NCBI GenBank assembly: GCA_032718475.1
Contig: JAUCBJ010000877.1
Coordinates: 196,109 to 260,108, forward strand
From: Nemertoderma westbladi
Taxonomy: Eukaryota > Animalia > Xenacoelomorpha
Length of the DNA: 64,000 nt
Direction of reading: 5' to 3'
Made by a program: the position numbers and the translations under genes
Part shown: one piece after another, positions 10,223 through 42,774 of the stretch
How the letters are laid out: each line of letters begins with the position of its first letter
How positions within the stretch are numbered: the stretch's first letter is position 1
Notes under the pieces: model-generated
What the model was told of the DNA's origin: nothing
What the model saw: only the letters and a program-made list of their open reading frames with translations
The model's database searches: none

Positions 10223-11869
10223 TGTGACGGGATCCGAGAGGATCCCGGTTTATCCGGTGTTGTTTATGTACGCGTCAGGCCGCACCGTGTGGTTGGAAAA
10301 GAGTTTGTATTGTTCTAGTGTTGTTGTTAATGATATAAGATATATATGTGGTACAATGTACAGATGTAGGTACAATAGCAGATAGCGGTAATACACGTTA
10401 ATAGACCGGTAATATGGGTGACGGCGGCGACGGTCTTAATTGTCACCGTACTGCTGTGACTGCACTGAGATAACTGAATGAATGATACGCAACTGGTAGT
10501 ATATATTGCACGGTTGGCCATATTGCTGTACCCAGTCTATGCTTCCCCCCTATTGGCTAATAACCCTGTTGTGGCCCTTCTGCTTCCCCTGGAGGGTTTC
10601 CCTTCGCCCCTGTTGCTCTCTCTCTCTCTCAGGGGTATAACCCCTGACCCTCATTGTGTGTGTGTGCCTTTCTCCTTCCCACTTTGTTGGGATGACACGA
10701 GGTTGATTGCTCACCCTAGTGTTCCCCAATATTGCTTAACGGCTCACTTTATGGGGTAGTTAGTGGAATTGGATAAGCTAACACTCCCCCCCATGCTATC
10801 TTCCCGGTGAGAAGATAGCATCTACCTCTAGTGCGCTACAATTCCGCTGGATCCCGACCTAGTATCGGGTGTGGGGTGGAACTATTTTCTTTCGGAGCCG
10901 GCTTTCCAGGCCGCTCCCTATGGGTATGTTAATGCTATCCGTTTGTCTGGCGTCCCGTGTCAGGCTGATCGTGCGCTTCTCTCACACAACTTTTGTTTCC
11001 CCGACACTTTCGCCCTAACTCTCCTCCACTCTCACCCTAACTCTCGCATACTCTCGGATCTCCTCGTCCCACACTCTTCCTCTCACTTCTCCCCCCCCCC
11101 CCACACTTGAATTGCGCCCACACTCTCTCCACACTATCTCCACACCACCTCTCGCTATCTCTCTTGCGTTCTCCTCCCATACTCTTCTCACATTCCTCTC
11201 ATACTCCTCTCGTACTCCTCGCTCTCCACGCCTGTGGTCCCACCAAGTGCCCCTCCTACTCGTATCCCTGTAGTGCCCATCCGCACGATTCTTATCCCGG
11301 AGGATACGAGCTTTCACAGTAAATCCTGAACTCCACCTGTTGTTCAATGACCACACACTTATCGGGTCCCACACATGTGTACATCATGTTAGTGGGAGCC
11401 GTCTAAGTCCCGTCCTGTCGCCCTAGTCAATTAGTCCCCAGTCCCAGTAGCTAATTGGAAAAGGTTGTGCTTGACTACGGTACATACTGTATAATATATA
11501 TATACGAGTTATTATATAATTTTTTATAATATTATAATTATAATTATTATATGTATTATGTTATATGCTCGTCTACATAACGCGCTTCATTCCTACTACC
11601 CACTACTCTCTCTCCGCCTTTCTCGCCTGGCGACTTCTTCCAGTCGCTTCCCCTCCAGTCTTTCCGCTTCCAACTTCTCCCAGCTCTCTTGTGTATCCAC
11701 CTCCCTGTCTACTGGATGCCGGCTGTTGTATTACGCCGACTCGCCCTCCAGCCCCGGGTGGTCTACCAGACCTCCGAAAGCCACCTAGAAGGCCCTTCTG
11801 TAGTTCGGAGGTGATCCTGATATTTGCCCCTATTCTGTGCTATTACCCTATCTACCCTTTCTAGCTACT

Positions 11870-12700
11870 ACTTCTATGGTCTCTACTCTCTTACTGCTAA
11901 CTCTACTGACCCACTAGCTCTACTAACTCTACACCACTAGCTCTGCTAACCTCCTAGCTCTCTAACTCTACTGACTCTCTAACTTCTACTACTAACTCTA
12001 ACTCCGCTACTAACTCTCTACTAAGTCTACTCCACTAGCTCTACTAACTCTGCTAACTCCATTTACTCTCTATTAACTCTCCAACTCTCTAACTTTCTAC
12101 TTCTGCCAACTCTACTGACTCTCTACCTCTGCTGACTCTACTAACTTTCTAACTAACGGCACTACGTACCCTCTTACTACTTCTACTAACTCCTCTAGCT
12201 AACGGCACTACGTACCCTCTTACTATCCCTACTAACTCCTCTAGCTAACGGTACTACATACCCTCTTACTACCCCTACTACTCCTCTAGCTAACGGTACT
12301 ACGTACCCTCTTCCTCTACATCTACTTCCTCTACTCTATCTACATCTTATCTCCTCTACGTCTCCTCGCCTGCACGTGACGCTCTGAGTGCCGGCAAAGT
12401 GGGTATGTTAATTGTGTGGTCTATTACAACCAGTACCTACGTACCCTCTTACTACGTCTATCTGCATGGCGCTTGCGGTGCCCACAACCACGAACGGTAC
12501 TACGTACCCTCTTACTACGTCTATCTGCATGGCGCTTACGGTGCCCACAACCACAAACGGTACTACGTACCCTCTTACTACGTCTATCTGCATGGCGCTT
12601 ACGGTGCCCACAACCACAAACGGTACTACGTACCCTCTTACTACGTCTATCTGCATGGCGCTTACGGTGCCCACAACCACTCTACTACTACCTCTACTCT
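11870..12700. repeat. Internal tandem repeats of BEL-A: CTAACTCTA-type low complexity, ~42-bp units, then 4 x 63-bp units
   Basis: TACGTACCCTCTTACTACGTCTATCTGCATGGCGCTT...CCCACAACCAC repeats with period 63 at about 12432-12680; related shorter units at 12150-12315. Confidence 0.92.
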
Positions 12701-15524
12701 GCTAATACTAACCCTAATTAACATACCCTACTCTTAAATCAAACACGTCATCACGCACGTGCCCTACTTATTCAACGCACCCCTGTACCCTTCTCATCTC
12801 TCCCATCTTCCTCCTCTAGCTCACCCTACTTGTTTCCTCTAGCTTGTTCTCTTGTTCCTGTATGTTCTTGGTTGTTTATACTGCGGATATTTTGTAATGG
12901 GGGAATGTCACCCTGTCCCCCCCCACCAGTGTAATGTTTGGTACTGGGGTTGATGTTAATATATTGGGGCCCATCCATCTATCTGCAATATCCCCTTCAA
13001 CCTGGTCTATGTTATGTCCCTGTGTATTATAGTCATGCTGCCGTACTGATATAGGCCTACCCACTTCTTGCCTACCTACCGGTATGTACTCCGCGACTTC
13101 CGGGTTTAATCCCGTCGTCCGCGCTACCCTATCGCCTATTCTATCTCTCCCAGCATGGCCTATAATAGTATGTGCAGTAAGGCCTACAGTATGTCCTGCA
13201 GTCTGCATGTGCCCTTCCGAACCGAAGTTTAATTCTCTCAAATCTCGAATCTCCCCGTGACTACCGTACTCTCGATCGGCAGCTACATATTCCCCACTGC
13301 TGGCTGATGAACCTGTGAGCCGCTAATAACGCGTAGCTCCCGCCCTTCCCGAACCCATGATAATAAAGTTGAATAGATCTTAGAATGATGTTGTTATGCA
13401 TAAGTGAGTTTTATGGGCCGGTCTGTGAGTGACTGATGTTGAATGTCTGAAAAGGCAGAAACTACGGTAGAAGCAATGGCACGCTGTCAGGTACACTGCA
13501 GAAGGAATAATGCAGAGGTTGAGAAACGCCCGGCCTTATAGGTTCTGGCGGTAGAACCGTTAGCGAATGGGAGACAACAGCCACTCACAGAGCGCGGTAT
13601 GATATACACCTATAAATAGCACCCAATCATGACACAGTAATACCATGGCTACGCTACACCTACTGTAAGGGCCGGTGGCAATGCTGTAATAGGTGAAGCG
13701 GCCGAAATGGTAGAACTATTGGTATTGTGGGTAGTTAAATGGGGAAAGAGAGATGAGGGAATATTGGAAATTGAAGCCCCTACCCATATAATGGTTCTTA
13801 TGGCCGGGATGGCTGGGCTACGGTCACACTCCCCCCTAAGGAATTTGAGAGGTTGCGGAACAACCTCGCAAATTTCCTTATACCCAAAAGACTTAGCCTG
13901 CTGGTTGACATGTTGCAGTTGAATGGACTATTCCCTCCCTTGGACATACTGCTGATAGTACTTACCCTTGGTTAACACTGACTAGACTTTGGGAGAATCC
14001 CTACTGTAGTCCCAAGGGGCAGATGGGTACATGTTCTCGCTTCGTCGGGGACTAGGCGATTACATTCTTGTTTCCTTACCTGTGGTGCTAGAGGCGCTAA
14101 CTTTACCTCGATTGCTAGGTAACGAAACTGCAGCCGGGCGCGCGGGTGTAACTGCGGAGCAGTACACCCTAGGTTACACTAACCATTTTTGCCAGCTGTG
14201 GAGCAGGCAAGAACAGGTACTACGACGGAGCCGATACCTATGACCTTACCTTGCTGAGTCAATGTCTCTTGATCTTCGCCAGAGGGGAGACACATCAAGC
14301 AACTTACCGCGTATCTTTGGCAAGCACTAGCGTGTCTGAGAGCTAAACGACGGATCGTCGCTCCTTGGTACATGAACAGGCGTGAATTCATGTACCCCAG
14401 ACTGCCTGTGAGAACTAAATGCGCTTTTTAGCCCACACAGAGAAATGTACATACTTCACTGTATGTACATCCCCAGTATTAGCGCCAAGCAGCGGAACTG
14501 CTAAGTCGCTAACTATGACCCATGTTGACGGAGCCAACATGGTGGTTTGCCGCCTTAGAATGATCCCGTTGTTAAAATGGGTTGTCAGTGGTCTCATGTC
14601 CATCAAATTCGCCCCTACCGTATTAGGTTTAATAAAGTAAGAAAATTTTAAGAACATGGAGCACTTTATTAATTTACAATAAACTATTGGTGGATGGTAT
14701 GACTAAATTTTACTATGCACAAATTTTGAATTTAATAGGGCATATCTTTCTCTTTAGGTCGAGCGCTCTAAGCTATATAACACTGATAGCCGACCCTTCA
14801 CGTTCTAGAACGGTAATTACATAAGTTGTCACGTAAACACGGTTTCACACTTTATAACATACATTTTGGACATTGCGGTGGGATAATCTTCAACCAGATA
14901 CGCGTAGAAAGTAGAACCCGCGTGTCATATCCTTTAGTTGATTGGCATTGGGAACCATAGCTATAATCTAAGCCAACAAGGCTTAACTCGCGATAACTCA
15001 GATTGTGCTAGCTATGGTTTGTATGTGACAAGGCAGTGTCTTGATGAGACTCAGATGTTAAATAGCGTGGCGCAATATTAATCCAATTCCTTGTCACAAT
15101 GAATAATAATGGTGGTTGGTGGTGCTAATATAGGTTTCACTTAGCCTAAGAAGAATGCTATCCTAGTAATAGCCTACATACGTTGCGCGTAATGTGCCTA
15201 TAAGTAAGAGGCACAGACCTATATTACACTATAGAAGTTTGCTATAATTATACATAGTGCTAGGTACATAATTAATTAGAAATAGAAGAGTTAGGGCTAA
15301 TTAACAAATGACATTGTTAATTAGAGTGGCGCTATGCCGTAGAGCGCGGAGCCCTCTACAAACATAGCTTTTAGGGGTAGCCTCGCTCACCGATTGCGGC
15401 ACAATCGGATAGGCATATCCCTGCGGTGGAATATTCAAGTGCACACTGACAGCTGTGCCTCCCGTGGTGGGTTTGCCCTTTACAGGGTTTACCACGCGTC
15501 CTAGAGACCCAGTCAGTTTTTAGT

Positions 15525-15930: not shown

Positions 15931-16059
15931 AGTTTATGATAATCCACTGGTGGATATCATCCTTCGCACCAGTTGTCGATATCTGCTGTCGATGCGAAGT
16001 TGAGAGGATTTTGGTTTTTTGCCACCCATCCTCCCCCCAGACGGCTGCCCCGTCTTTAA

Positions 16060-19000
16060 TTAGGGCGCGCATTCCAATAGGCAGCAGTTGCCTATTGGTC
16101 GCTTGTAGGTGCGCTCAGCTCCGCTGCCAAGGCTGACCTCGACGGAACGCACTCGGCCGTCTGCGCCTGGGTAGCAGCGCACGATCCTGGCCATGCACCA
16201 GTCTTTCTTGAGTAGGATATCATCGGTAACCAGTATGAGGTCGCCCGGTTTGAGGTCCCTCTGCTCCGTCCTCCACTTTCGTCGCTTGTGGAGAGTGGGT
16301 ATGTATTCTTGTACCCACCGACGTTGATACTCGTCCGCGAGCGCTTGTACCACCCGCCAGGACTTGCGTGAATAGAGTTCATTAGGGTCCCACTCCCCCC
16401 GTCGCATCATCTGAGCTGGTCGTCGCAACAGTAGATGGTTGGGTGTGAGAACCTCGAGTGACATTGGGTCGTCATTGAGCGCGCAGAGTGGTCTGCTGTT
16501 CATAATTTGTTCGCCCTCTGCAAAGACAGTGCGGAGCACGTCCTCCGTGACGATGTGCCCTCTGAGTAGTGCCAGCATCAGGCGTTTGGAACTTCCAATG
16601 AGACGTTCCCAAACTCCGGCGGTGTGTGGTGCATAGGGCGTAGTGTGTACCCAGTCCACACCTTCGCGGCGCATTGCAAGAGCCACTTCCTTGGCATTGA
16701 AGGTACACCTGGCTTCTTTGAGCTCCGCCTCTGCACCGATGAAATTTCCCCCATTATCGGAAGCCATGCGCTTGATCTTTCCACATCGATTGATGAAGCG
16801 TCGAAGGGCGTTGATGAAAGCGCTGGCCGAGGCGTCGACTGCAAGTTCCAAGGCGATGGCTCGGGTATTGTAGCAAACGAAAATGATGCCGTACGATTTC
16901 CGCTGCTGTCGATAAACCTTTACCACTGTCGGCCCGAACATATCAGTTCCTGTATAGGTAAATGGTGGTTCATACTCTATTGTTCGTTCGGGTGGAAGCG
17001 GCGCCATCACTTGGGTTACTCGTTCTTTCCGCACTAAACGGCAGGTAGAACAAGAGTTTATAGTCTGTTTGATTGATCGGCGCACCGCTGGAATCCAGTA
17101 CGTGCGTCTCACGTAAGCAAGAGTTGCGTCAGTACCCCCATGCATCACCCGCTGGTGACTATCGTTGATGATCTGCTGCGTCACTGGGCTCTGCCGCGGT
17201 AGTATTACGGGCTTGCTTGGAATTATCTGACATCCTGCCCGTCGTACTCGTGAGTCCATGACCAGGACTCCTTCCTGGTTTAGTGTTGGTGACAACGATT
17301 TGATTAGGCTATCCATCGGAATGGGTTTCCCAGATGCTAACCGTCCTATCTCCTGTGTGTATGCCAGTCGCTGGACATACTTAATGACAGCCACCTTGGC
17401 TCCCTTCCAGTCTATAATGGGCTTGTCTCCAGTACGCCCTTGTCTGATATAGGCGAACCAGGCCCTGAAGTAGGCTGCCAGCTTCACAGTCTTATACCAT
17501 GAAGAGCTATGACTCAAGAGTTTTCCTGTTGGTGTCATCAGTGTACTAGTAGTAGCGAAGCACACGGTCTCCACCTTGACCTCTGGATCTTCTGGGTCTA
17601 ACTTGGGAGATTGACCTTTGTCCAGGAATTCCGGCCACTTCCCCTCATCACGGAGAAAAGAGGGTCCATGCTGCCAGAGCGTCTCCAACTCCTTAGATGG
17701 GACTTTGAGGGTTCCCCGGGACACTAGGTCGGCTGGGTTCTGGTCTGTCAGGCAGAAGTGCCACTTATTAAGGTTGGGCGTGGCACGTATCTCGTCCACT
17801 CTATGAGCAACGAAAACTTTGAATCTTCGTGATTCATTTTGAATGTAGCGAAGCACAACAGTGGAATCCGTCCAATACTTTACTTCTCGCTCATTCTTAA
17901 GAGCTTTTCGTACTTGTTGAGCTGCGCGTGTGGCCATAAGTGCAGCCATCAGCTCTAATCGCGGGATTGTCACTAGTTTTAGTGGAGCAGTTCTGGCCTT
18001 ACTGAAGATCAGACGTGGTTGCAGGTTGTTCTCTCCTCCTTGAACCACGTATATCACGGCCCCATATCCCTTAGTCGATGCGTCTGAGAAGGCATGCAGG
18101 ACCACTTCGGACATATTCCCATCCGAGAAGTACGGTCGCAGTATACTTAGCCTTCTAGTATCCTTGAGAACTTCGAGCCAAGCTCTCCACTTGATTTTGA
18201 GCTGTTCTTGGAGTTCCTCATCCCATCTGAACTTCCCCAGATATGCTTTGCGAAGGATATGCCTTCCCACCACCAGGTTAGGTGATGCTAACCCTATGGG
18301 GTCATACATCCTCGCGATGTATGATAGGTAATTCCGTAATGTATGCTTTGTCATAGCTGTCTCGTTGAAGATATACACGAGATTATCGTTGATCCTATCC
18401 CATGAAATCCCAAGCACTCTGGCCTCAGGCTCTGCCGAAGCCTCCGTCAATATCCGGTTGACTTCCCCTGAGGCTGCGTCTGGCTGGCTCCTACCCTCCG
18501 CTAGAGGTTGTAGGCTTATAGGAGCCATGTTCTCACTTTGTTTGAGAAGGCCTGTGGATTTATCCTCTGGGGCCATCTCGGCGTCAAATTCGGGACAATT
18601 CGACTTGAACTGCCTCAGCCAGAATCCTCCCCGCCGTAGAATCTCTACCGCTTCCTTCGCTAGGCTGAGGATTTGTTCAGTCGAGTTGGCTGATTGCAGA
18701 CCATCGTCTACATAGAAGTTCTCCCTAATCATGCGGATTACCTCTTGTGAGAATTCGATGAGAACATTCTTGTCAAAGGTGGTTTGCCGTAGTTTATCTG
18801 TGGCGATGAACGGCGAACACTTGGCGCCAAAGATGTGGACCAACATCTTGAATTTCTTTGGCACCTCGTTCGGGTTATCGCTGTCGTGCCAGAGGAATCG
18901 GAGGCTATCGCTGTCCTCCTGATAGACCCGAACTTGGTGGAACATGGCCTCCACATCGCATGTGAAGGCCTTGGTTCCCTCTCTGAACCTCATGAGCACA

Positions 19001-20444
19001 TCTGCTCCTGTATTATAAATGTTGGGCCCCTCATGGAGATAGTCGTTCAGCGACTTCCCATGGTATTTGGCTGCAGCGTCGTTAACCAACCGGAGTTTAT
19101 TGTTCTTCTTCACATCTACGGCGACATGAAGGGGTAAGTAATAGGTTCGAGTGGTATTGGGTTCCTGGTTCGCTAGCTGGACTGCCCACCCTCGATCTAG
19201 ATACTTCTGAATGGTTCGATGAACAAACTGTTTCTTTCGCTCATCTCGGTTGAGCGTTACCTTGAATTTGCGTAGGCGCTCTACTGCCATGGATTCATTG
19301 TTAGGTAACTGCCCATTCGGGTCTTTCCACAGCATTCTTGCTGTGTAGTGGCCATCTCGAAAGATGGTTGAATTTGTTAGTGCCTTGGTTGCTCTAACGT
19401 CCTCCTGGGATTGGCCAAGCGTCAGTTCATACAACCCTTCGCTATCCAGGTTGAAGAGGGTTGCTAGGTCTTGTGCCACCGTAGTGCCACTTGAGATCCC
19501 GGCTGTGTCAGTTGGGGTATAAGTGAGTTCATGGGATGTGATTGGTCTAGCTGGGCCCGGTTTTACTGATTTAATGATGTGGTTAGCAGTAACAGCCTCT
19601 GTCGGGTTTGATATAGACGGTACCTTAGCCACCTTGCCAAGTAATACCCAACCCAGGGGTGTTCGTACAGCCTGGGGCTGATTTCTACCTGGACCCTGAA
19701 CTATCTCCAGCTCTGCATGTACCGGGAGACAGCACATCCCCAGCACCATGGTGACATATGGAAGATCCAATGGCGGAAGAGAGAAGTCGATGCCGTCCAG
19801 GTATGAGTACTGGGCTATCTCCTCCATTGTTGCTCTTTCGGCGGGAACGTTTACCTCGTCTATCACACGTACTGCTGGGCACTTAATTGAGAACTCAGGC
19901 CCTGGCATAATAGAACTAACTGTACATTCCCCAACCGGCATGTTTATCTCCTGGTTCTTTAATGCAATAGTGCTTATATGCACGGTCTCTGGCTGTGTTG
20001 CAATATGCAACTGTTTCCGAACGACTTCACCTTGGATGTCGATTCCAGCACCGTTATCGACTAGTGCTAGGGTTGTCAGTGACCGTTTCCTCGATCCTGT
20101 CACTCTAACAGGAAGTATCTTAAGATACGTTGTCTCTCCATAATATCGATCCTGGAGAGATAAAGTGTTTATCACGCCTGTAGCCCCGGATTCAGCAGAT
20201 TTCCCAGACTTTGCAGGCGCATAGGGACAGTTCGTTGAAAAGTGGCCTGTGGTCACACAATGCTTGCATGTACCATGATGCTTGTGGTAATTCCACTTGT
20301 CCTGTTGGCTTTGTGCTTGCCACACCCTGCAAGTTCTAGTAGGGTGACCTTTGTTTCTGAAATGGATCTGGCAGTCCACCTCGTCGCTGTAATCTAAGGT
20401 TCCTATGTCCCAGTAAGGTGTAAATGGAGTAAACCGCTCCGATT
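16060..20444 (-). CDS. pol: BEL/Pao polyprotein: Zn knuckles, protease, RT, RNase H, integrase
   Basis: CKHCVTTGHFSTNC knuckle, ALVDNGA protease, DVEAMFHQV and FYVDD (RT), HAFSDAS, TIPRLEL and NPADLVSRG (Pao RNase H region), HHCC zinc finger, TDMFGP, SDNGGNF, GVWERL (integrase). Confidence 0.96.
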
Positions 20445-23003: not shown

Positions 23004-23752
23004 GTACTGCCGTAGGGCTAGGCAACAGTTCGTAGGCCTACCCTACTACAACGACAGCGTTTTTTTTACCGTAATTACCGGTGACCGGACCGGTACGCAC
23101 TTACAGTTCTGTCGTTGATCGCTCCTTTTACTTTTACCTAGCTGGGTGCCTAGAGATGTTGAAGAAGCAGTTTTTAGCAGCCCTATCCGGACAATGCTTC
23201 TACTTTTATTCCCCACTGCTGGCTGATGAACCTGTGAGCCGCTAATAACGCGTAGCTCCCGCCCTTCCCGAACCCATGATAATAAAGTTGAATAGATCTT
23301 AGAATGATGTTGTTATGCATAAGTGAGTTTTATGGGCCGGTCTGTGAGTGACTGATGTTGAATGTCTGAAAAGGCAGAAACTACGGTAGAAGCAATGGCA
23401 CGCTGTCAGGTACACTGCAGAAGGAATAATGTAGAGGTTGAGAAACGCCCGGCCTTATAGGTTCTGGCGGTAGAACCGTTAGCGAATGGGAGACAACAGC
23501 CACTCACAGAGCGCGGTATGATATACACCTATAAATAGCACCCAATCATGACACAGTAATACCATGGCTACGCTACACCTACTGTAAGGGCCGGTGGCAA
23601 TGCTGTAATAGGTGAAGCGGCCGAAATGGTAGAACTATTGGTATTGTGGGTAGTTAAATGGGGAAAGAGAGATGAGGGAATATTGGAAATTGAAGCCCCT
23701 ACCCATATAATGGTTCTTATGGCCGGGATGGCTGGGCTACGGTCACACTACA

Positions 23753-25544: not shown

Positions 25545-26699
25545 CTCAGACAGTTCGGCAGCTCTTAGAAATTAAGACTGTGACGGGATCCGAGAGGATC
25601 CCGGTTTATCCGGTGTCGTTTATGTACGCGTCAGGCCACACTGTGTGGTTGGAAAAGAGTTTGTGTTGTTCTAGTGTTGTTGTTAATGATATAAGATATA
25701 TATGTGGTACAATGTACAGATGTAGGTACAATAGCAGATAGCGGTAATACACGTTAATAGACCGGTAATATGGGTGACGGCGGCGACGGTCTTGATTGGC
25801 ACCATACTGCTGTGACTGCACTGAGATAACTGAATGAATGATACGCAACTGGTAGTATATATTGCACGGTTGGCCATATTGCTGTACCCAGTCGATGCTT
25901 CCCCCCTATTGGCTAATAACCCTGTTGTCGCCCTTCTGCTTCCCCTGTAGGGTTTCCCTTCGCCCCTGTTGCTCTCTCTCTCTCTCTCAGGGGTATAACC
26001 CCTGACCCTCATTGTGTGTGTGTGTGCCTTTCTCCTTCCCACTTTGTTGTGGTGACACGAGGTTGATTGCTCACCCTCGTGTTCCCCAATATTGCTTAAC
26101 GGCTCACTTTATGGGGTGGTTAGCGGAATTGGATAAGCTAACATATATTGCTTAAGAGTTCTAAGGGGCGAGCCATGAGGCAAGATGTTTGAGACTTATT
26201 TAGATATATTATTACTTAATTTTGACCCTTCAATCGGTATCTATTACAATATGGGCTATATTTTTTGCAGAGTCACAGAGTAGTCTGAAGTTCCCCAGTC
26301 TGCCGCTAGACCAGTCTATGCCTCAGTGAGGCATAGTGCCTCACTGAGGCATAGACTATGCCTCACTGAGGCACTGAGGCATAGACTATGACTCATAAGG
26401 GTCTAAGGCTGATCATTTGCTTAGTTTTCTAATTAGAAGGTCGTGAGTTCGAACCCTAGAAGAGCATTATTCTTTTTCCTAGCTCTAGGCTGACTCTAGT
26501 GTACACTAGCTTTAACTCTCCCAGCTATAGTGATAGTATGGAACCTTGGGAGTTAATGTGAGTAAAGGCCAAGAGATTAGACTTTAGGTTGCCTCCATTG
26601 ATTCACTCTTCTTAACTTTATAAAATTACTCAACCCTTACTTAAAGTTTTAAAAATTATGACTTAGTCGACCAATTTTCCAAAGTATATTATAAAAACA

Positions 26700-30769: not shown

Positions 30770-32960
30770 TAATGCAAATTGAAATTGAAATTATACAGAC
30801 CAACCATTTACAAATAAACAATTACGGCAATAAAAAATATCGTCCAATTATTATGACTTCAAATACAAACAATTTAATCCTAATTAATATAATCTAAACT
30901 AATATAATCTTACCTAATTTAATTAATCCATACTATCTAAAACACGCTCTATATACTTACACATTACATACAATTCCTTACTCTGAAAAAATTCCGGTAA
31001 TGATGAAAAAATAAGATTGGTGTGAAAATAGGGGGTAACACGAAACGGTTTGGAAATGGGACAATGAAGGAGAACGTGTGTCTCTGTCTGCACCGATTGG
31101 TTATCACAGCGGCACACACGGTTCTCTCTCGGCAGCCTTGACCACCTTCCAGTCTCAATTTTCAAATTATGGGACATAACTCTCAATCGAGTAAAATAAA
31201 TACGTAAGTAATCCGGCACAAAAGGTCTCAGACATGTATATATTGGATGTGGAACTAAGGCAATGTTAAACTGACTACGGTAGGTTACAAACTTTGTAGC
31301 TGACAAAGGTTTAGACATAATTCTACTTCGTATCTCATCCAGTGGATTGATGTTATCTGCAAAATGTTGTGCCTCAGTTAGCATTCGGAAACCTGGTGTA
31401 TTCGCGCTTCGGCATAGATTAAACACTTTGTGAAAAGGTAACTCTTTATCTACTACTTTAAACATTCTACTCATAAAACGTTTCCTCGCTCGCATAATTA
31501 AATACTTCAATGTGGGAGTACCAATTTCTATTAAGCAAACATCTGTAGGTGTCTGGGACCTAACACCAAGTAAACTTTTCACCATTCTGTAATAGTATTT
31601 CTCTATTTGTACAGTATTTTTTGATAACCAAGCTTCACATCCGTAAATCAGGCCGGACAATACAGCAGCGTCAAATACACGTTTCTTAATAACAAACGGC
31701 AAACTGGTATTTGCACTCGCAAAAATACTAAATTTATTTACCGTTGCCTCGCACTTTAACTGATGCAAATTAATTGTACTATGCACACTACCATCTGAAC
31801 AGAAAGGTACACCCAGATATATATAACTATTACAATAGTTAACAACAAGGTTATTAATAACAAAGGGCATTTTATCACTAGCCTTGGCATTGATGACGAA
31901 GAACTTAGTTTTTTTCTCATTAATTTCCATACCTGACTCCTTGCAGTAGTCAAGTAAAGCATTTAATTTCAACAATGCACAATGCCGGGTAGTAGATAAA
32001 ATTACCGTGTCATCCATTAGCAGTAATATTTGGACTACACCTAAAAACCCATCACTGCTCACGGCAGAGCGAATCATATGCACCAATTTATCTATATATA
32101 TACAGAACAGTACAACACTAGATGGCGTACCTTGACGGACACCAATAACAGTAATCAAAACAGCCGATTTTAATACATGCTTAGTACACTTATATATTGC
32201 TTGTATGGCTAATAACATAACCCTCCCGCAACCTAGTGATCTTAAACAATTTAATAAACCATGCCGCGGAACTCGGTCGTAAGCCTTTTTAAAATCAACA
32301 AATACTACAAACAATTGTTGTTTATTAAACAAAGCATAGTCTATAAGTAGGCGCAGCGACATTATTTGCTCTAAACACCCCCGCTTTGGCTGCCCTCCAG
32401 CCTGACATTTATCAATCGTACACCATTTCGTTAACCTATTCGTAAGTAACAAATCATACACTTTGGCAAGTGTCGTAATTATAGAGATTCCTCTATAATT
32501 ACCACACATTTTACGATCCCCCGACTTAAATAAAACAACTAACTTACTAATTCCCCATGCGATAGGATACCAAGATCTGCTAAACAGAATATTAAATAAT
32601 GACAGAAAAAACAATAACCAAGACGCTGGTAATGCTGTGAAAATACCCGGGTCGACTCCAATATAACCTTTCCCTGTTTTTAGGTCTGCCATCGCTTCAG
32701 CTAACTCTCTGTCACTAAACGGGTCGTCCAGAATCGGAATATACGGTTGCGAGTCCGTTTGTAATTCAGGCGCTTCAGCGCCAGTGGCAGCAGATAAGTC
32801 GCCGCCCAAAAGGCTGTTGAAATGATTGACAAACTCCTCGTTGTTTGGGGTATCCGCTGCTCCGTCGGCGCTAATAGAACCCTTCCAATTTATAGCCCTC
32901 CATATCTTTTCAGAGTCGTTGCCCTCTGTCAATCGTTCCCAACGATAAACACCATCAGAA
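30770..32960 (-). mobile_element. 5'-truncated RTEX-like LINE (RT plus C-terminal zinc motif) inserted in BEL-C
   Basis: ORF 30923-32932: NYRGISI, FVDFKKAYD, GVRQG, LLMDD, SHNLKIETGRW...CRC...ETHVLLHC. Tail (AATTTC)n at about 30776-30792. No TSD found, so boundaries are approximate. Confidence 0.88.
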
Positions 32961-33809
32961 GATCCCTTAGATACATAACGTAGTACCTATAGCGATACGG
33001 CTATAGGTCGTCAGGCGGTGGTATTTTCCTATCTGGACAACGCAGTGTATTTACTACTACGTATTATTTTCAAATACCGCAGTACCCTGTCCGTTGTAAT
33101 AACCAGAATTCTAACCCTTTGTTAGGCTGGTTTGTAGACTTCTTGTAAAATTACCCTAAAAATTCGTATTTTGTGTTTTTTGTAAATTTTTGTGTTTATT
33201 TAGAGATTGTAATCTCACCCGAATTGTACGTAATTTGTAGTATTAAGTAACTTAGGTAAATTAGAATTATTTGTTTTAGTGTCCTATAAGTAACACTTCA
33301 CTGAAAGCGCACCGCTTTGTGTAGTGATTACTCCCCAGAAATAATAACATTTATTTCAAACATTGACAAACCCATTAAAACGGGTATATATATATTATAA
33401 ATCAAATCTAACGATTTATAAATAGTAGGCCTGCCATACAACAATTAGGTCTCAATATCAGTTGGACTACTGCTTAAATAACGGTAATAAAGTAAGTTAA
33501 AGTAACCAAGTAACCCTTAAAATTCAGAAATTCAATTATTCTAAAATAATTGACATACCGGTATCCACGATAGGCCTATTATATATTTATATATATTTGT
33601 GCTAAAATTATATACCGGTTTCTGTGAAAAACCTAGTCTGTAATAATACTTATATATACCATAAGCATACCGGTATTCTAATATTATATATATCACGCTA
33701 CACTGAGTAGCAGTATCGGTAATTAATTACTAGGCTAGCAGTTAATACTGAATTACTAGACTTGCTTGGACTGTAATATAGCAGTAGGCATTCAACTGTA
33801 CAACCAAAC

Positions 33810-36800
33810 ATGTCTGACTCACAACAAACATTGTCAGATAGTCTCTTAGAGGGTGTTAGAATGAGTATTAGACTTAGACAGCGTCTTAAAAGGATCTGTG
33901 ACCAAGATCAAAGTATGGAACATCCCAGACCAAAGTCTAAGTCCCCTCCTACTGTGCGAAAGATCATCCCTCAAGTAGTAGTATCAGACCCTAGGCTAGT
34001 CCAACATCGTAGGTCTATCATAGGCACTCGAGCTCAGGTCAAGCGGGACCAAGAAGCAGCGGAACCTCAACAACCCGCGAGCCAAGAACTTACTTCTCAA
34101 CGGCCTGATAGCTCCAGTAGTTCGGATACTGTTGAGCGGACTCCCGAACGCGGAGCGAAGATGGCGGATAAGGTTTATGATGAGCGGCCAACCTATGAAG
34201 AATCAACCGACGCCACTTCTTCTCAAGAAGAAAGCGAAGTGACAGCAGAGAAACCGCATAAGAGGGATGCTATTGACATCTATCTGTCAGACTATCAACG
34301 CTTTGTAGGAGATGAAGAGTTGAGGAGAAGGCTGGAGGGGCTTAGCCCTAATAGTGAAGGAACAAAGCTTGTGCTGGACGCAATCGATGCGGAAATGTTA
34401 GCGGCGAACCAAGCTAAATTCGATGAACAACTCCGCATCACACGAGTCCAAGAAGAACAAGTAAAGAAAAAACGTATAGAAGACAGAAAGAAAGCAGCAG
34501 TGGTAGCTGCAGAAGCAGAAAGAAAGGCGGCAGCGGCCAAGGCAAAAGCGGCAGAGGCAGCGGCAGAGGCAAAAGCGGCAGAGGCAGCGGCAGAGGCAGC
34601 GGCAGAGGCAAAAGTGGCAGAAGCAGAACGGAAAGCGGCTGAAGAAACCACCCAATTAGAATTGGAAAACATTCAGGAGAATCAAGACTGCATAAATAAA
34701 CAGTTAGCAGCTAGTAATATGCAGATGATGAATCGATCTACTCCCAAAAGACAGGGATATACATCATCTGAGGAAGGCGATACCACCGATACTGAAGGCA
34801 AAGGAAATAGATCTCGTCTAAGCAGACGTAAAAGAACATTCCACCGTCAGAAATTGCCTGATTTGCCTCCAGCTGTTAGAAGGCAACTAAATAGCACCAA
34901 CTTAGGTAGTACAGAACCCACAGACCAAATAATTAAAATAGAAAGACTCCCTACTATAGTAGATGAGCCTGAAATAATTAGGCCTGTTCTTGAAATCACC
35001 CCTTCGGTGATAGACACACCTGTGCTCCCTGAAGTTACCTCTAAATTCCCTCTGCACAGCACTAAGCTACCTGTGCCCAGTAGAACAGCCCATGAGGCAG
35101 TTCAGGTCCTGGACCCCGAGCGAAATATTCCTGATTTGTCGCCCGTTGTCCCTCGTCCGCCCGCTACAACGTTGGCGACTCCCGCTTCGGCGGTCGAATG
35201 GGTGGACGAGAGACGGCGGGGGATGGATCTCCTGCTCGGGCAGATGCAGGAGACTGTTCAACAATTCAAAGGCACAGTAAGGGAAAGTAGGCTAGAGTTG
35301 CAAGAAGTGCAGCAAAGTATCGCGCTAGAACGCGATAAATTAGTAAATACACAAAAGGGTATACCACCACCCTCTGTAACAATGTGTCAACCTGTTAGGT
35401 CTGAAGTATCGCATGCGCAAGGTGTGGAGCCTACACGCATCTATACTGCTAGCGAAGTAGAAACTCCTATAGTGAACCCTATTAAGGGTAATTATAGACC
35501 TGTTGATAAGGATATTCCATATAGAACGGATCATAATCCGAGAAATTTATATACCGATAACTCGATATTAAATAACACGATGGCCCAAGAAAGTTTTACG
35601 CGTCAAATGGCTAGAACCGAAGCCCGGCAAGCGGTAAAGGTGGGAGAGATCGTCAAGTTCAATGGAGATGAGATGAAATGGTTACCTTTTAATGAATATT
35701 ACAAAGATAACATACAGAACTCTGTGCTATCTAATGGAGAGAAACTTAGATTCCTCATCGAGTGTTTGGAAGGATCTCCCAAGTTAATGGCGTTAAAGTT
35801 TATTGGACATCCAGACGGATTAAGACAAGTTTGGGATACACTTAACATCAGGTATGGTAATAGGAATAACATAGCTGGGTACTTGTATGCAAAGTTGGTA
35901 GCGCCCCGAAAGTTTATTAGCAGCGGAATTATAGAGTTTTCCGATGAGATTCAGGAGATCTGCAGACAATTAGATTGGCTAGGTAAGTCTCATGAGTATC
36001 AGAACACTATGGTTATTAGAGCAGTAGCTTCTACTTTACCGAAGGGTGGAGTAGGTACACGCTGGGATAAGAAAGTGTTATATATGATGGAACAACAACG
36101 AAGAGACCCTACCATGGCTGATCTCATGTCATTCTTAGATATAGAAGTGAAATTACAGCTCCTAAGGCAGTCCAGAGAGAAGACATTGGAAAACAAGGTA
36201 AGTGAGAAACCCGTTTCTAGGAGAAGGGTAACACCAATGTGTTATACAGACGACGGCGAAAGCCTAACCTCTCAAGGAGAGGACAGCGGGAAAGACACTG
36301 AAAGATCTTATTATGTCAATAAAACGCCTAAAGACCAGGTAAGTAAATCCAAGTCTCGACCCAATGACAGAAGGGAACCGGTACAAAAAACCCCTCCTAC
36401 GTCTCCTAAAAGAATTCAGGTGAGAAAGTCCGAGGAAAGAACAAGTGTGCACCACATAGCACAGGTTAAAGTAAGTAACATCAAGCCGAAATGTGTGCTG
36501 TGCGACGGGCCCCACCGTTTAAATGCGTGTGATAAATTCCTGAGGAAATCACTAAAGGATAGACGTGAAGTCATGTGGGATAAGCGGTTGTGTTATAATT
36601 GCCTCAGACGAGGACACCAACGGCGAACCTGTTACTCCGACGCAAGGTGTGCAAAGTGCGGCGCAAAACATCATATCTTGTTGCACACGGAATTCGAACG
36701 AAACAGCCCGAGTCAGGTAAGTGAGTCCGAACTACATGTCCAATTCAGTGATGTGAACGACACTGATCAATCTGAGATGGAAGGATTATATACGGACGAG

Positions 36801-37130
36801 TTCTCCGACCAAAACGAATCCTGTTACCTAATAAACACCACCGCAGTGTATCGAGCACTCGTGCATGAGAAAGACACAGACAGCGACCTTACCTTAACTA
36901 CTTCTGATCAACAACCATCTTGGAAAGCGCCAACTTCCAATATAGGAATCCGAGAATTTCCTGTAGTCCAGTTACGGGTCCACGGACCTCAGAAGAGCTA
37001 TATAGTGAACGCCCTCCTGGACTCCGGTAGCACAGGAACATTCATCGATAAAGAACTAGCCGAAGTCATCTTTGCTGGACAACCCAAGTTCCGAACCAAG
37101 GGATCATGCAGGTTTGGAATTCTACTGTAG
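33810..37130 (+). CDS. gag: BEL-C Gag (capsid-like domain, three Zn knuckles) and protease start
   Basis: KFNGDEMKWLPF...EKLRFLIECLEG (Pao gag, DUF1759-like); CVLCDGPHRLNAC, CYNCLRRGHQRRTC, CAKCGAKHHILLH; ALLDSGS. Confidence 0.93.
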   Translation: MSDSQQTLSDSLLEGVRMSIRLRQRLKRICDQDQSMEHPRPKSKSPPTVRKIIPQVVVSDPRLVQHRRSIIGTRAQVKRDQEAAEPQQPASQELTSQRPDSSSSSDTVERTPERGAKMADKVYDERPTYEESTDATSSQEESEVTAEKPHKRDAIDIYLSDYQRFVGDEELRRRLEGLSPNSEGTKLVLDAIDAEMLAANQAKFDEQLRITRVQEEQVKKKRIEDRKKAAVVAAEAERKAAAAKAKAAEAAAEAKAAEAAAEAAAEAKVAEAERKAAEETTQLELENIQENQDCINKQLAASNMQMMNRSTPKRQGYTSSEEGDTTDTEGKGNRSRLSRRKRTFHRQKLPDLPPAVRRQLNSTNLGSTEPTDQIIKIERLPTIVDEPEIIRPVLEITPSVIDTPVLPEVTSKFPLHSTKLPVPSRTAHEAVQVLDPERNIPDLSPVVPRPPATTLATPASAVEWVDERRRGMDLLLGQMQETVQQFKGTVRESRLELQEVQQSIALERDKLVNTQKGIPPPSVTMCQPVRSEVSHAQGVEPTRIYTASEVETPIVNPIKGNYRPVDKDIPYRTDHNPRNLYTDNSILNNTMAQESFTRQMARTEARQAVKVGEIVKFNGDEMKWLPFNEYYKDNIQNSVLSNGEKLRFLIECLEGSPKLMALKFIGHPDGLRQVWDTLNIRYGNRNNIAGYLYAKLVAPRKFISSGIIEFSDEIQEICRQLDWLGKSHEYQNTMVIRAVASTLPKGGVGTRWDKKVLYMMEQQRRDPTMADLMSFLDIEVKLQLLRQSREKTLENKVSEKPVSRRRVTPMCYTDDGESLTSQGEDSGKDTERSYYVNKTPKDQVSKSKSRPNDRREPVQKTPPTSPKRIQVRKSEERTSVHHIAQVKVSNIKPKCVLCDGPHRLNACDKFLRKSLKDRREVMWDKRLCYNCLRRGHQRRTCYSDARCAKCGAKHHILLHTEFERNSPSQVSESELHVQFSDVNDTDQSEMEGLYTDEFSDQNESCYLINTTAVYRALVHEKDTDSDLTLTTSDQQPSWKAPTSNIGIREFPVVQLRVHGPQKSYIVNALLDSGSTGTFIDKELAEVIFAGQPKFRTKGSCRFGILL

Positions 37131-38218
37131 CTGCCGACTATTATATAGGTGAGTTGTCCACTCCACAGGATAAACTAGGAGAATACAGTATAAGGTCAGT
37201 CAAAATGGTGGCAATAAAGAACTTCGCTACCACCCAAGTGGAACCTTATAATTGGGACGAAGATGATCATGCCCAACAACTTAACATCCCTAGATTCGAC
37301 ACCGATTATCCTGGAGTACAAATATTAATCGGTCAAAACGCGCATGAGGCGCTGGAGACATTGGAGAAACGACCTGCTCAACCGCAACCACTTCAGACCT
37401 ATGCGGTAAGAACTAGAGTAGGTTGGTACCTTACTGGACCTTCCCGAAGAACGCTCAGAGAAAGACTGCTTCAAGATCGCGTCCGCCAGGTGAGTGAATG
37501 GGAAGATGATACTAGTGAGGGAGACGACCCAACAGAGGGAACACCATACTCCTCAGATAATGACGATATTAGCTCCAATGTAGATCAATGGAGATATTGC
37601 CCCAAGAAGTTTAATCCAACTGACATCGCTTCCAGAGGAGCAACTCCTCAAGAACTGACAGATACTACAGACCGGTTAGGTGAACCCGACTTCCTGAGTA
37701 AGGAGGATGAATGGCCTCCCCATCTTACTCCGACTGAGATTAGACCAGCCAAGGGAGCGGAGAAAGTCAAACCTAAAACCCAGACGGGTGGATCGGAGTT
37801 ATTTGAACCCGGGATAGATCTGTCGGTATTACATATTGCCAGGGACGACGCCGTGGATCTGGACCTCCCCACCGCGAGTGGATCCTTCATGAAGATCAGA
37901 GAGAGCGATTGGAGCTCTGGAACATCAGACGTCTCGCAGGGACTCTCACCTCTCCTGCAGGGAGCGACGGACCACTATAGCTCCTGGAATCGGCTTTGTA
38001 AGGCCGTCGTGTACTTAGAGCGATGTTTCTATCGTCACTATTCCAGGACGAAGAGGAAACCTGGAATTGTATTCGGGATGCAGCGACTCAATCACCCAGT
38101 CGGTCGTTTGTGTTTACCGGAAGGGAATGGAGGACTCTCCGGAAACTGTGGAAGGCAAGATTCTCTTCCCACGACCACCTCCCTAATCCTTCAAACATCT
38201 AGGGACTCCATAACGTAA
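37106..38218 (+). pseudogene. BEL-C pol remnant: protease C-half joined to the post-RNase H region; RT, most of RNase H and integrase missing
   Basis: ILIGQN...AVRTRVGWYLTGP, then QWRYCPKKFNPTDIASRG and SSWNRL. No YVDD or DDE motifs. Confidence 0.85.
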
Positions 38219-41200
38219 CAACATATGGAGTGGGTGTGTGACTCTATTATTTTGTATTTGTTTTATTTTTATATTTATGTATGTATTATTATGTAATTTT
38301 ATTTTAATCGTTTTATTTAATTTTATTTAGTAGTATGGTATTTTAGAGATTATTTAGTAGATTAGTGCAATATATATTCGCGTTTATTATTTAATTACGT
38401 ATATTATATATTTAGTGCGACGGCGAGAAATAATTATTTTCTCTTTCCTTACTGCCCGTATTACATTATCAATACGTGACTACAGTAAGATGAAATATCC
38501 GTACTTATTAAAGTACAATAAAGCCACTACTATATTTAAGTATTATTGGTAGGCAGAGTATTAGGAATGCAAAGTTCAGATCCTCGTGTCTCGGCTAAAC
38601 CAAGCTCTGGGTAGACCTTGGAAACGACTTGCCTCTTCACACTGACATTGCTTCGTGCGATATTGCTCTCATACCGTATATTAAATAATACATATAGTAG
38701 CGTGATGTCCCTTTAACAGTAGCGTATAACGGAAAATAAATCTGTTAAACCCTTTGACCATCTGCAATTCTAGTCTATTAAGATATCGCGGCACCCACCG
38801 ATATACTTGAAAGACAAATTTTAGAATCAGTGGTTAACGTCCCCAGACAAGTTCTGGAATAAATTGGTGCCCATCTCAAATATTAATTATTTAATATTTG
38901 CAAATCTAATAAATCAAATCTGTAAAATTCAGATCCTTCAACAATTCTAGTCAATTAAGATATCGTAGCATTTACCGATATTCTTAAAAAGACAATTTTC
39001 ATAGAATTAAGGATCTTGTGTCCCCAGACATGTTCTAGAATCAAAATATGTCCATTTAATTATCAAATAATAAAATTTCAGGGAATAAATTTAAATTCAT
39101 GCCTTTTAATGAATTTAATAAATTGCCATTTTTACGCAATTTATAACATTCCCAAAATTCCATTAATTAATAGATCAAGGGAGCGGAGATTTATCTTATT
39201 ATGAGTATGAGTGTGCGAAGTCTCCCAAACATAGTCAATAGCCGATAAAATTCATAAAGTCATGTATAAAACAGGACATTGACCATTAAAGAATTACTAT
39301 TAAATAACATCCCAGATCTGTATGCATTGGAATTACCCTAATTCTACCGCTAGCTTTACATAATGTCACCATAGCAACAACCACGCTAGAATTAGAATTG
39401 AGTTAAAAGAACAATAGAAAGCTTGTCCCATTGAATAGCATAGGGAATAAATAGCGCACTGCTAGTATCCAAGGATACATAATAATACAGTGACATTCTG
39501 GAAGGCATTGACTAACGGACAAATGGCCCGAGTGTGTGTAATTTGTGACAAGTTGTGTGTGTGGTATTTGTGAGTTTATAGGCGAATGTTACTACTAAGG
39601 TGTGTTTACAGTTGCGAGTCGCAATTGTGAAAGTAACCCTAACTCTCCAGTAAGAACCTGAGGTGTATCTAAGCCTTTGGGACGGACAGTCGAGTGACTT
39701 GTGCCGGTTGTCGTTGTCGTTGTGCGGCTACGTCGTTGGCGAAAGTACAGCAGCGACGACACATCGGCGACTTTAGTCCAACTGCTGCGGAGGACGATGG
39801 TCGTTATATCGAACCGCCAATGTCCCAAGAGCAGCTCGCGCGAGTTGGACTATAGAAAATTCGCTGCTCGATATACGCAGCGTAATGGTACGTATATGGT
39901 CTTCTTAACTACTGGTCATCCTATCGATTTACACAATACGGACTATGTCGACTATATATCCTGCCCAGCGGAGTCGGAACCATAAACTGAAATTCGAATG
40001 CGAAAATTCTATTCGAAATCGACTCGAAAGAAAAGACACTAAAGAAACAAATAAACGCGGTAACTCCAACGTATATTTGGAATTCTTGATAGAAGCATTG
40101 TAACAACAAATAAATATCACCCGCGTTTCCCCTACCAGACGTACGTCTTTGGTATTATTACGATAAATGCCCTAGACCCAACTAATAAACGGAAAGACAT
40201 AAACATCCACGGAAACGTTGTGTTAAACACAGTTGTGCTCGTTATATTTATTGGAGTTTCGAGCGAAACTTGTTTGACGTATCACCTATGCTCACTCGGC
40301 TCGAACGATCCTGGAGTAAACCTATGATCAGAGTCCCGGAATACTCGGTCAAACCTCCTCATTCCTTAGTTGGACCTCAGACCTGCGATCCTGGTGGTGT
40401 CGCGGATCCTCGCGGACTGTATTCACTGTTCAAAGATCTAGTGCTACCCTAACAATTAATCGGTAACACTCCGACAGTGATTTCTAGCTAGCCGCCCATC
40501 TTACCTAGCCGGATTGTGACGCGGACACCTAATATCACTATCCCACCGTATGGTCGTCCCCGTTTAACGCGATACAACCCTTCATCAAGGTGAAGGAGAG
40601 CGTTGTACGAAACGAGTTAAACGCTATTCTATAAAGATCAAAAAAAAGAAACCTGCGTTTGTTCAGATAAACGTAAGTTATAACAGTAAGTCCAATCGAT
40701 AAACGAATTGGCCTTATCTTAGTTCGATTGGGAAATCTCGAATCTCTAAGAAGATATCAAGCTTAGAAAACCCTATTCTCTGCGAGAGTTTTGGACGAAC
40801 GTATCCCATGACAAGCGGAGGAAAATCAGCTCGAGGAGAAGCATATCGAAATGGACGAGGCTCCGACCGTAAACCCAAACCTTCTAATGCAATTGTATTG
40901 CACCCTTTACCCAGGAGTTATGGCCCTCCTAGTAAAGTGGCTCCCCCCAAAGAGAAAAAGACTCTTGCTAGCCTCAAAAAACTGCGTAAACGCCGTCTGC
41001 GTAAGAAAGACTAACTGTTTAGAGTATCTTTATATTTTAGAAACTGTGATTTGTTATATTTTATAGACTTAAATCCCATTTTCTGGGAGCGGTGTAAAAG
41101 CTTTTGCGTAATTAGCCGGTTATTTTCCCGTAAAGTACTCTGTAGTTGGTTTACCAGGCATAAAAAGGCCGTGTCCTTACTGTACTGGTGTTTTAGAGGA

Positions 41201-42774
41201 CATAAAAGCCATTTCTTCTGTATGTGTACTTTAAAGGACATAATCCGTAATTTCGTGACGCAATAGCTGGATACTCTTGAAAACAGTGTCGCTACCATGA
41301 CGACGGCTAACAGCTGATATTGCCACGTAGAACATTTCTTTGTTTCTTTGTTCTCTCTTAGTTCAGTCAGCCAATCAGAGCATTTTTATGGCTCTTGTAG
41401 AGAAATTTCCTAGAAATCACGCAATGCTGTATGGGCAGTGTTATCATTCAGTCCTGAGCCAAGGAAGAACGGCTTTGGAGTATTTTTGTGCTTTTCTGCT
41501 TTAGCCTTACACTAGTAGGCTTAATTATAAGGACATATATCCGTTATCAAACCAACTGGGTAACTCAATGTTATTTGCACTGGTTAACACTGGTTAACTG
41601 GCCCATACTGTGCAACTTAACTTAACATTACTGCTTTGCTGTCGGTTATTCATTATATTTGTTGATGAATTATTATATTTGGAATAACGAGAAATAACCC
41701 CGAAACCCAATATTCTTGATATACCGAAGGTAAGAGAGAAAGGTTACATATAACGATTGCGACTTATGTTAAAGTGGTTTGAAGTGAATCTAATGTTATT
41801 TGATAGACCCTACATGAGTCGGTCTGTGTTCCTTTTATACGTGACTAAAATCAGTGAAGATCGGCAGATTAGTGTGCAGTATTGTGCAGCATTGTGTATG
41901 AGTGAGACTGATAACGAAGCATTTCCTAAAGAATGCGCCATATATGTGAATTGTAACTAAGCCATATCGTTGTGAGTAGTTTAAGTCATAACTCTGTTTA
42001 TATAGATAGAGCGCCACGTCCTAAAGGAACTGTTAATATTCCCCGAAGGTGAATAATATTGTCAGAGATTATATAATACTGTCAGTCGAATAATACATTA
42101 GGCTTACATTGCAATACGATTAAGCCGTCGAAGTCAATCTCCCGGGTATATCCAACGGGTGAATGATCGCGCACAGATTGGTTTCAACTAGTGTAGTGAA
42201 TCAAATACTTGTCAGAGGCTAAAGCGATTTATTATCTAGAAGACATCCTAATTTGGCGGGTTAAACTGCCAAAGGTCTGAAAGCGCGAACAGACCTGTAT
42301 TAGGCAAAATAGCAGTAGCTGTGTAGGCCCACCAGTACTGTGCACGGGTACAAGACCCAAAATGTAGCCTACATCTGTAAATAATACACGGTTTCATGGT
42401 ACAACACCATATAAATTAGACCACCATCTGTAAAATGCTCGCCTGAGTTCAGGAGTTGCACAGATGTCAGGATGTGCTGATTCTATATCATCCACTATCG
42501 GATTCTGGTAGCCTGGAACTAGACTAGACCACAGAACTGATGCGACAGAGCGAGGTGCCGTTAGCCTAATATTTCTTGGAGGCTGGTCCGATAACACTCA
42601 ACTCATTGTTTGGTTGGACATTGACATTATTGCATTACAGTGTACATTATTACATACTGATTAGTATGGATTGAGAAATTGGATATATTTGGACGTCAAT
42701 GGATGGATAGCTTTGGTTTGAGAAACTAATATCACGTAGGCCTACCTTATCATATCTTTGCGATAATTATTACT

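Follow-up and report, generated by a model that had tools for sequence, protein, structure and literature searches.

The closest described systems are long terminal repeat (LTR) retrotransposons that prime, or are predicted to prime, reverse transcription with their own RNA. In Tf1, the initial 11 bases anneal to the PBS (primer-binding site), and RNase H cleaves between bases 11 and 12 (PMC7175516, in excerpt); Tj1 is a further self-priming relative in this group (PMC4600332, in excerpt). For the TAR lineage of Ty1/copia (Houba, Osr-1), self-priming was inferred from an LTR complementarity of at least 10 bp, located 0-5 bp past the 5' LTR (PMC6317226, in excerpt). The original prediction on the DNA studied here had named Tf1/sushi elements as the known case of self-priming; the copia example extends the predicted range beyond them. 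For BEL/Pao, the Belpaoviridae profile of the International Committee on Taxonomy of Viruses (ICTV) describes priming by host tRNA through an 18-nucleotide (nt) PBS complementary to tRNA-Arg or tRNA-Gly, and terms the replication of this family poorly understood (PMC8742986). Here we analyze three LTR elements (A, B and C) in 64,000 nt of Nemertoderma westbladi (GenBank assembly GCA_032718475.1, contig JAUCBJ010000877.1, positions 196,109 to 260,108; the whole stretch is called the window). B and C, which are BEL/Pao elements as judged from their predicted proteins, and A, which is likely one, appear to start reverse transcription with a cleaved piece of their own RNA and not with a tRNA; we put the probability of this at roughly 0.7.

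The elements resemble Tf1 and Tf2 (Schizosaccharomyces pombe), Tj1 and the Tf1/sushi and Tcn1 groups in three ways: a tRNA site is absent, the PBS pairs with RNA derived from the own LTR, and the duplex has a similar length. As in Tf1, the PBS adjoins the LTR edge and is complementary to the own LTR, both in the window and in the relatives described below. They differ in other respects. The Pol of B is of BEL type whereas Tf1/sushi belongs to the Ty3/gypsy chromovirus reverse transcriptase (RT) lineage, the paired segment is predicted at least 35 nt inside the transcript rather than at base 1, most relatives have an intron joint inside the segment, and the A[C/T] boundary is invariant. An intron-split primer goes unmentioned in the excerpts of PMC6317226 on TAR. 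In fungal GalEa copia elements a local partner in the leader replaces the PBS, and the authors found no LTR complement (PMC5445492, in excerpt). The elements considered here likewise have a self-complementary feature in place of the PBS, but their partner sits within the LTR, at a distance of 46-744 nt upstream of its end.

With the Belpaoviridae of the ICTV profile (LTRs of 0.2-1.2 kb, polypurine tract, gag with overlapping pol, and the order protease, RT, RNase H, integrase; PMC8742986) element B shares the LTRs, the polypurine tract, the overlapping reading frames and the domain order. In contrast to the profile, an 18-nt PBS of tRNA type is absent from A, B and C and from 29 of 32 scored relatives. 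Priming in BEL/Pao has so far been assumed rather than shown. A full-text literature search, with subscription papers, Repbase notes and supplements outside its scope, returned no report of self-priming or of a splice-built primer in this superfamily. Some BEL-type elements of Caenorhabditis elegans have reportedly been proposed to encode a tRNA-like primer. By term search, the main texts of Copeland 2005 (PMC554778) and de la Chaux 2011 (PMC3118150) hold no passage on a PBS or tRNA.

Pairing between primer site and LTR in the window

A search for a TGG primer site after the 5' LTR of each element found none, as originally stated, and all four reported matches between PBS and LTR were recovered at offsets of 0-3 nt. 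In C (forward strand) the PBS at 29513..29524 is flush with the LTR end and pairs at 12/12 with a segment in the 5' LTR (28757..28768) and at 12/12 with its counterpart in the 3' LTR (41536..41547). B and A lie on the reverse strand. The PBS of B (23192..23203) starts 3 nt past the LTR and pairs at 11/12 with both the 5' LTR (23386..23397), where a 9-bp perfect core sits at the predicted primer 3' end, and the 3' LTR (13467..13478). The PBS of A (25570..25578), again flush with the LTR end, pairs at 9/9 with the 3' LTR (10433..10441) and at 8/9 with the 5' LTR (25789..25797), where the longest perfect run is 5.

Chance levels were estimated with dinucleotide-shuffled LTRs (direct match, offset 0-4, 200 shuffles; C was scored on slightly wider LTR bounds than those set by its target-site duplication). 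The match of C is reached by 0/200 and 1/200 shuffles, that of B by 4/200 and 1/200 (perfect) or 1/200 (one mismatch allowed), and that of the 3' LTR of A by 2/200. When real internal sequence was put in place of the leader, the observed match was reached by 0/2304 false leaders for C, 14/1864 for B, 9/855 for the 3' LTR of A and 742/855 for its 5' LTR. Requiring the A[C/T] boundary motif lowers these counts to 2/1864 for B and 4/855 for the 3' LTR of A (C, 0/2304). A laxer null, in which any GT-AG joint was allowed as well, gives 4/1000 for C, 45/1000 for A and 54/1000 for B. Judged from the window alone, the pairing is strong and convincing in C, moderate or suggestive in B, and weak in A.

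Only Watson-Crick runs were used, since counting G-U pairs swamps the signal: most of it is then lost (A 65-128/200, B 24-39/200, C 8-9/200). A splice joint inside the paired segment of A, B and C was rejected, the best lengths being 6, 7 and 11 nt, shorter than the direct matches and with poor donors. Neither ARAGORN nor Rfam returned a tRNA gene or Rfam family in the window.

Covariation and predicted splice joints in relatives

Relatives were sought with an alignment of the RT-RNase H region of B and 29 matches, which was used to scan 41 of 64 metagenome parts. Taken from the best 80 of 532 confirmed, 79 BEL/Pao loci (32-42% identity) fall into 50 families. LTR and leader were readable in 32 of these, with the LTR end fixed by the divergence of two copies in 12 and by eye in 20. 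A perfect match of 10-15 nt to the own LTR is present in 28 of the 32 scored families (10/12 with independent ends, 18/20 with ends chosen by eye). Cross-family pairings, window elements included, reach at least 10 nt in 59 of 1190 cases, 12 nt in three and 13 nt in none, and many of the high-scoring ones are between kin. Shuffles reach 27 of the 28 matches at most 8 times in 200 and the remaining one 22 times, values that are optimistic for hand-chosen ends. The covariation check against shuffled controls that the original prediction had called for, run here on metagenome relatives, thus lends strong support to its idea of BEL/Pao self-priming, and so does the separate later set described below.

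The other four scored families have TGG sites in three cases (L006, whose site we take to be of tRNA-Tyr type, L056 and L076) and a 10/11 junction match, placed by eye, in L072. When every CA position in 17 stretches was scanned blind, this pairing again came out on top in 13, with shuffle counts of 0/40 for six of these and 2-16/40 for the others. In the 18 unscored families LTR or leader was missing or unclear. Among them, L035, L036/L037, L058 and L078 have one side only, L019 has a 12-nt direct match in the blind scan (2/40 shuffles) with a doubtful LTR, and L012 has a TGG site without a full LTR. The later set comes from a scan of genome contigs (12 loci, six scored, LTR ends of three by eye). 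Perfect matches of 11 nt were found in five of the six (four spliced, one direct; 1-22/200 shuffles) and a 10/11 junction match in the sixth. Of the unscored loci, L090 has a junction match of 12 nt, placed by eye, at offset 8, and five are without a readable pair. These loci (L080-L091) are BEL/Pao contigs inside records titled as bacterial genome bins, most likely animal host DNA that contaminates the bins.

For 26 of the 28 matching families, the match requires a GT-AG joint within the LTR; unspliced, the best match is 5-9 nt. The LTR introns measure 66-426 nt. Although the joints were picked by complementarity alone, leaving the donor sequence unused, GTAAGT is the donor in 17 of the 26 (counting L014, where it is tied with two other choices), compared with 21 of 1393 background GT sites. 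Each of the 28 matches begins 0-5 nt from the LTR edge and terminates on the LTR side in A[C/T], with C or G as the next base in 26. The segments of A, B and C end in A[C/T] followed by C as well, a boundary that the scoring does not impose. In most relatives, then, the paired segment would arise only once an LTR intron is removed; the joint is visible in the DNA and the splicing is inferred from it. The original reading was right about the pairing itself but missed this construction of the segment by splicing. Direct, joint-free matches occur in L060 and L073 of the first set, and the segment of L087 is also ready-made, like those of the window. A, B and C can accordingly be seen as junction-free elements in which the boundary rule survives without a split primer. 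In 24 of the 28 families a poly(A) hexamer (AATAAA or ATTAAA) is present, either within the segment or downstream of it.

An unrooted RT-RNase H tree of 71 rows (two families were left out as too short; this tree and the one below are quick trees) puts the four tRNA-type families on one side of a single branch, with a support of 99 in the Shimodaira-Hasegawa-like approximate likelihood ratio test. Most of the rest is filled by spliced families. The direct families L060 and L073 group with the spliced L014 (support 100), and therefore the intron has been lost or gained within clades. The L012 site equals the tRNA-Met-type PBS described for GalEa in the excerpts of PMC5445492. B forms a very long branch without supported placement under a mixture model; under a simpler model with 26 rows it stands beside the spliced L008 and L004 (support 96). 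The protein collections searched yielded no close relative of B (at most 40% identity). Viral contigs held nothing with the RT of B, with the alignment (389 pattern matches, none confirmed) or with the LTR pattern of B. As a separate observation, L014-L016 represent one BEL family assembled head-to-tail, its units having single common LTRs, either as a tandem array or as a circular assembly.

Proposed mechanism and alternative explanations

Self-priming could proceed as follows. The starting point is present in the DNA: an LTR segment of 9-12 nt complementary to a site 0-3 nt past the 5' LTR. This segment would lie in the repeated region R, with the transcription start upstream, and the 5' part of the genomic RNA would fold back onto the primer site. 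By analogy with Tf1, the RNase H of the element would cut right after the paired A[C/T], which would leave a 3'-OH and, on the 5' side, roughly 35 nt or more of unpaired tail. As in standard LTR replication, strong-stop DNA would then be made and moved to the 3' R. Plus-strand synthesis would re-copy the primer site from the primer, and in this way an exact match could be kept without double mutations. In spliced relatives only the 5' copy would be spliced, the unspliced 3' LTR copy being unable to pair. The intron would persist because strong-stop DNA would begin downstream of it, with the unspliced 3' copy serving as template for the upstream part of the LTR. Junction-free elements might arise if a spliced 3' copy was once copied or if the joint moved upstream. 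A and C, which have no RT, would be copied in trans.

Our confidence in self-priming is higher for the spliced relatives than for the elements of the window. We lean slightly towards a more general proposal, in which self-priming would be the main mode of a large BEL/Pao branch of aquatic animals. Here the host spliceosome would normally join the primer from two LTR exons, so that pairing and cleavage would be open to the 5' copy only. Lineages of the window type would have lost the intron or shifted the joint upstream, kept the A[C/T] cleavage boundary, and would prime with a capped RNA whose long 5' tail is unpaired, more tRNA-like than the 11-mer of Tf1.

Motif scans give an indication of where the transcripts start. 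A has a predicted core promoter at 25826..25861 (reverse strand), with a TATA-like box followed at 30 nt by an initiator-like motif; its motifs align at about -80 (CCAAT), -30 (TATA-like) and +1 (initiator-like), and a TATA-like box and initiator-like motif are predicted to align likewise in B. The segment ends 72 and 73 nt past the TATA-like box in A and B, with different letters, and is predicted at +35 to +45 in both (its end at about +43 in A and +45 in B). For C, a position of about +87 to +98 would follow from a CCAAT box together with an initiator-like motif. The original prediction had taken the 5' end of the transcript as primer, as in Tf1. These positions suggest otherwise: the segment is probably not at the extreme 5' end but at least 35 nt inside, and further in or ambiguously placed in C. 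Long 5' tails are plausible because a TATA-like box lies 224 nt before the donor in L082.

For B, the region 23415..23507 (reverse strand) has two mutually exclusive readings: a promoter, with the TATA-like box at 23459, or a candidate LTR intron of 93 nt. The intron combines the best donor and the best acceptor of the LTR, as scored with a matrix built from the introns of 26 relatives, at the low end of the training range; it ends 29 nt before the predicted primer end. With this intron removed, the helix is predicted at a probability of 0.8-0.9 instead of 0. Since initiators, being rich in pyrimidines, can look like acceptors, we prefer neither reading. Hypothetical upstream introns were also tried in A and C, and the helix was rescued in B only. 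With a short 5' tail the helix is dominant in B and C (0.84-0.98). Several relatives with clear matches fold poorly, so that folding is weak evidence here. Single-sequence folds gave no stem between U5 (the LTR part downstream of R) and the leader that is common to A, B and C. In the optimal fold of B, the predicted transcript start (23417-23430) pairs over about 14 nt with the U5 end (23205-23218, both reverse strand); in nested folding this pairing is a competitor of the primer helix, and A does not show it.

Several observations weigh against self-priming in the window, or against the strength of the case from the relatives. With the predicted start sites, the helix lies outside the optimal fold of A, B and C (pair probability 0-0.04; 2.0-6.9 kcal/mol above the optimum), and in A its probability stays at or below 0.03 whatever the tail. 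The 5' LTR of A pairs at 8/9 only, a match reached by 188/200 shuffles (perfect) or 33/200 (one mismatch). C passes the perfect 10-bp rule applied to plant TAR elements in the excerpts of PMC6317226, whereas the perfect cores of A and B, at 9 bp, fall under it. No BEL-defining domain was found in A by Pfam or by blastx against fetched BEL proteins (E<0.05). In C, the paired segment overlaps at its start the third copy of a motif present three times in the LTR (GGACATA), and a TATA-like box about 10 nt before the segment would let it fall in U3, the LTR part upstream of R. AATAAA and ATTAAA are absent from all three LTRs of the window. Grouping of B with the tRNA clade is not rejected (approximately unbiased test, p = 0.39), and the LTR end was chosen by eye in 20 of the 32 scored families.

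It might be argued that the pairing is structural, serving packaging, a splicing checkpoint or a translation switch, and that a host RNA such as a tRNA half primes at or near the same site. GTTCGAA, found in the sites of several relatives, resembles a tRNA T-loop and would favor such a host RNA. The excerpts of PMC6317226 describe half-tRNA priming for some copia lineages, and those of PMC5445492 a conserved non-priming hairpin in place of the PBS of fungal GalEa. We nevertheless consider a host primer unlikely. The paired site begins 0-5 nt from the LTR edge, where the primer 3' end must sit; it varies freely among 28 families yet tracks the own LTR, by Watson-Crick pairs only and with an invariant A[C/T] end; and an exact copy of the spliced joint is the trace that re-copying of an RNA primer would be expected to leave.

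The relatives might also self-prime while one or more window matches, that of A above all, are due to chance or decay and the elements concerned prime otherwise. The laxer null for A and B, the 742/855 false leaders for the 5' LTR of A, a helix that never forms in A and the unsupported tree position of B would all fit this reading. It is made improbable by the fact that all three elements match, with C at 0/2304, and carry the A[C/T]-then-C boundary of the relatives, and that the segments of A and B stand at equal promoter distance in spite of different letters. Moreover, the LTRs of A differ at 15 positions, so that the 5' mismatch can post-date insertion. Even less probable, in our view, is a primer taken from the 3' LTR copy (the RNA 3' end or a cut in U3/R, possibly of a second packaged RNA). 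The perfect match of A is confined to the 3' LTR and the TATA-like box of C could put the segment in U3, as a primer from the 3' copy would allow. Against this, 26 relatives need intron removal, yet their LTR introns persist; the 3' copy must therefore stay unspliced, which points to the 5' copy as the one that pairs. The poly(A) hexamer, which 24 of 28 families carry within the segment or downstream of it, also argues for the 5' copy.

Taken together, the signature is real and is best explained as self-priming of BEL/Pao elements, a variant of a known mechanism. If most of the sampled relatives prime with their own RNA, self-priming would be a major strategy of a third LTR superfamily. A spliced primer would moreover tie reverse transcription to nuclear RNA processing, a tie that no paper we found describes, and self-priming would account for the many BEL elements whose annotation lacks a PBS. 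From the signature, the cut site, the splice joint and the end of the RNA attached to the first cDNA can be predicted at single-base precision.

Anatomy of the elements and neighboring features

Self-comparison of the 64-kb window shows three LTR pairs, whose ends were set by 5-bp target-site duplications (TSDs). Element A (reverse strand) has a 5' LTR at 25579..26143 (565 bp, TG..CA, TSD ATATA) and a 3' LTR at 10223..10783, preceded by a polypurine tract; the two differ by 15 substitutions and four gap columns. Its gag-like open reading frames (ORFs; 370 and 264 amino acids, 23888..25571, reverse strand) have no Pfam match but a weak blastp match to the Gag of B (E 0.002), and pol is absent. 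In the leader of A (25518-25530, reverse strand) the 9-nt primer site is repeated 52 nt downstream, again after CACA like the LTR end, possibly as a duplicated unit of LTR end and PBS.

Element B is nested in A on the same strand, with a 5' LTR at 23207..23747 (541 bp, TG..TA, TSD TGTAG) and a 3' LTR at 13288..13828, again preceded by a polypurine tract; its LTRs show a single difference. The gag-like ORF (879 amino acids, 20403..23042) has no Pfam match. The pol ORF (1464 amino acids, 16060..20454) encodes Cys-His knuckles, protease, RT (YVDD), a Pao RNase H region in whose sequence the acidic motifs are present, and integrase. Its Pfam matches are Peptidase_A17 (E 3e-41), Integrase_H2C2, rve and DUF5641, and the top homologues, at most 40% identical, have the same Pao domains. 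B is the only one of the three elements with RT, RNase H and integrase.

Element C (forward strand) has a 5' LTR at 28353..29512 (1160 bp, TG..CA, TSD GACCT) and a 3' LTR at 41093..42291 with a purine-rich tract before it. A gag with DUF1759 and Cys-His knuckles, a protease and pol remnants that match BEL proteins span 33777..38218, and no RT was found in C. The leader contains the RT ORF of a foreign element, likely a long interspersed nuclear element (LINE), on the reverse strand (30923..32986; RVT_1, E 7e-30). In the LTR of C (28419-28758, forward strand) the three GGACATA motifs stand at LTR positions 67, 105 and 400; after the second comes a diverged version of the paired segment. The gag ORF of B is without a DUF1759 match, whereas that of C has one. 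B may lack a capsid region or have diverged in it, and B (enzymes) and C (gag) could complement each other.

All three elements have a 5-bp TSD and a purine tract; the LTR of B ends in TA, not CA. The original prediction had classed all three as BEL/Pao-type, which B and C bear out; A lacks a BEL domain, and its likely membership follows from the weak match to the Gag of B, a common end of the polypurine tract and a common LTR layout. It had also called them unrelated. Indeed, overall similarity among their LTRs is not significant (A-B, 17/200 shuffles). A and B nevertheless probably do not represent independent lineages, as they share a polypurine tract ending in GGGGGGAG, the 72/73-nt spacing from TATA-like box to segment, and the Gag match.

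Outside the elements, the window contains two copies, about 99% identical, of a Roc-COR gene (3224-9208 and 45192-49156, reverse strand), whose nearest proteins are about 28-30% identical, the closest named ones being from stony corals. A CARD domain closes the second ORF, and a LINE-type endonuclease-RT ORF at 5564-8380 interrupts the first. Genes of this Roc-COR-CARD type suggest an invertebrate host. A WD40 beta-propeller ORF (337 amino acids) lies at 50067-51080 (reverse strand). An inverted pair of tandem arrays of about 160 bp occupies 53940-54660 and 58206-58825, with more short repeats up to 64000.

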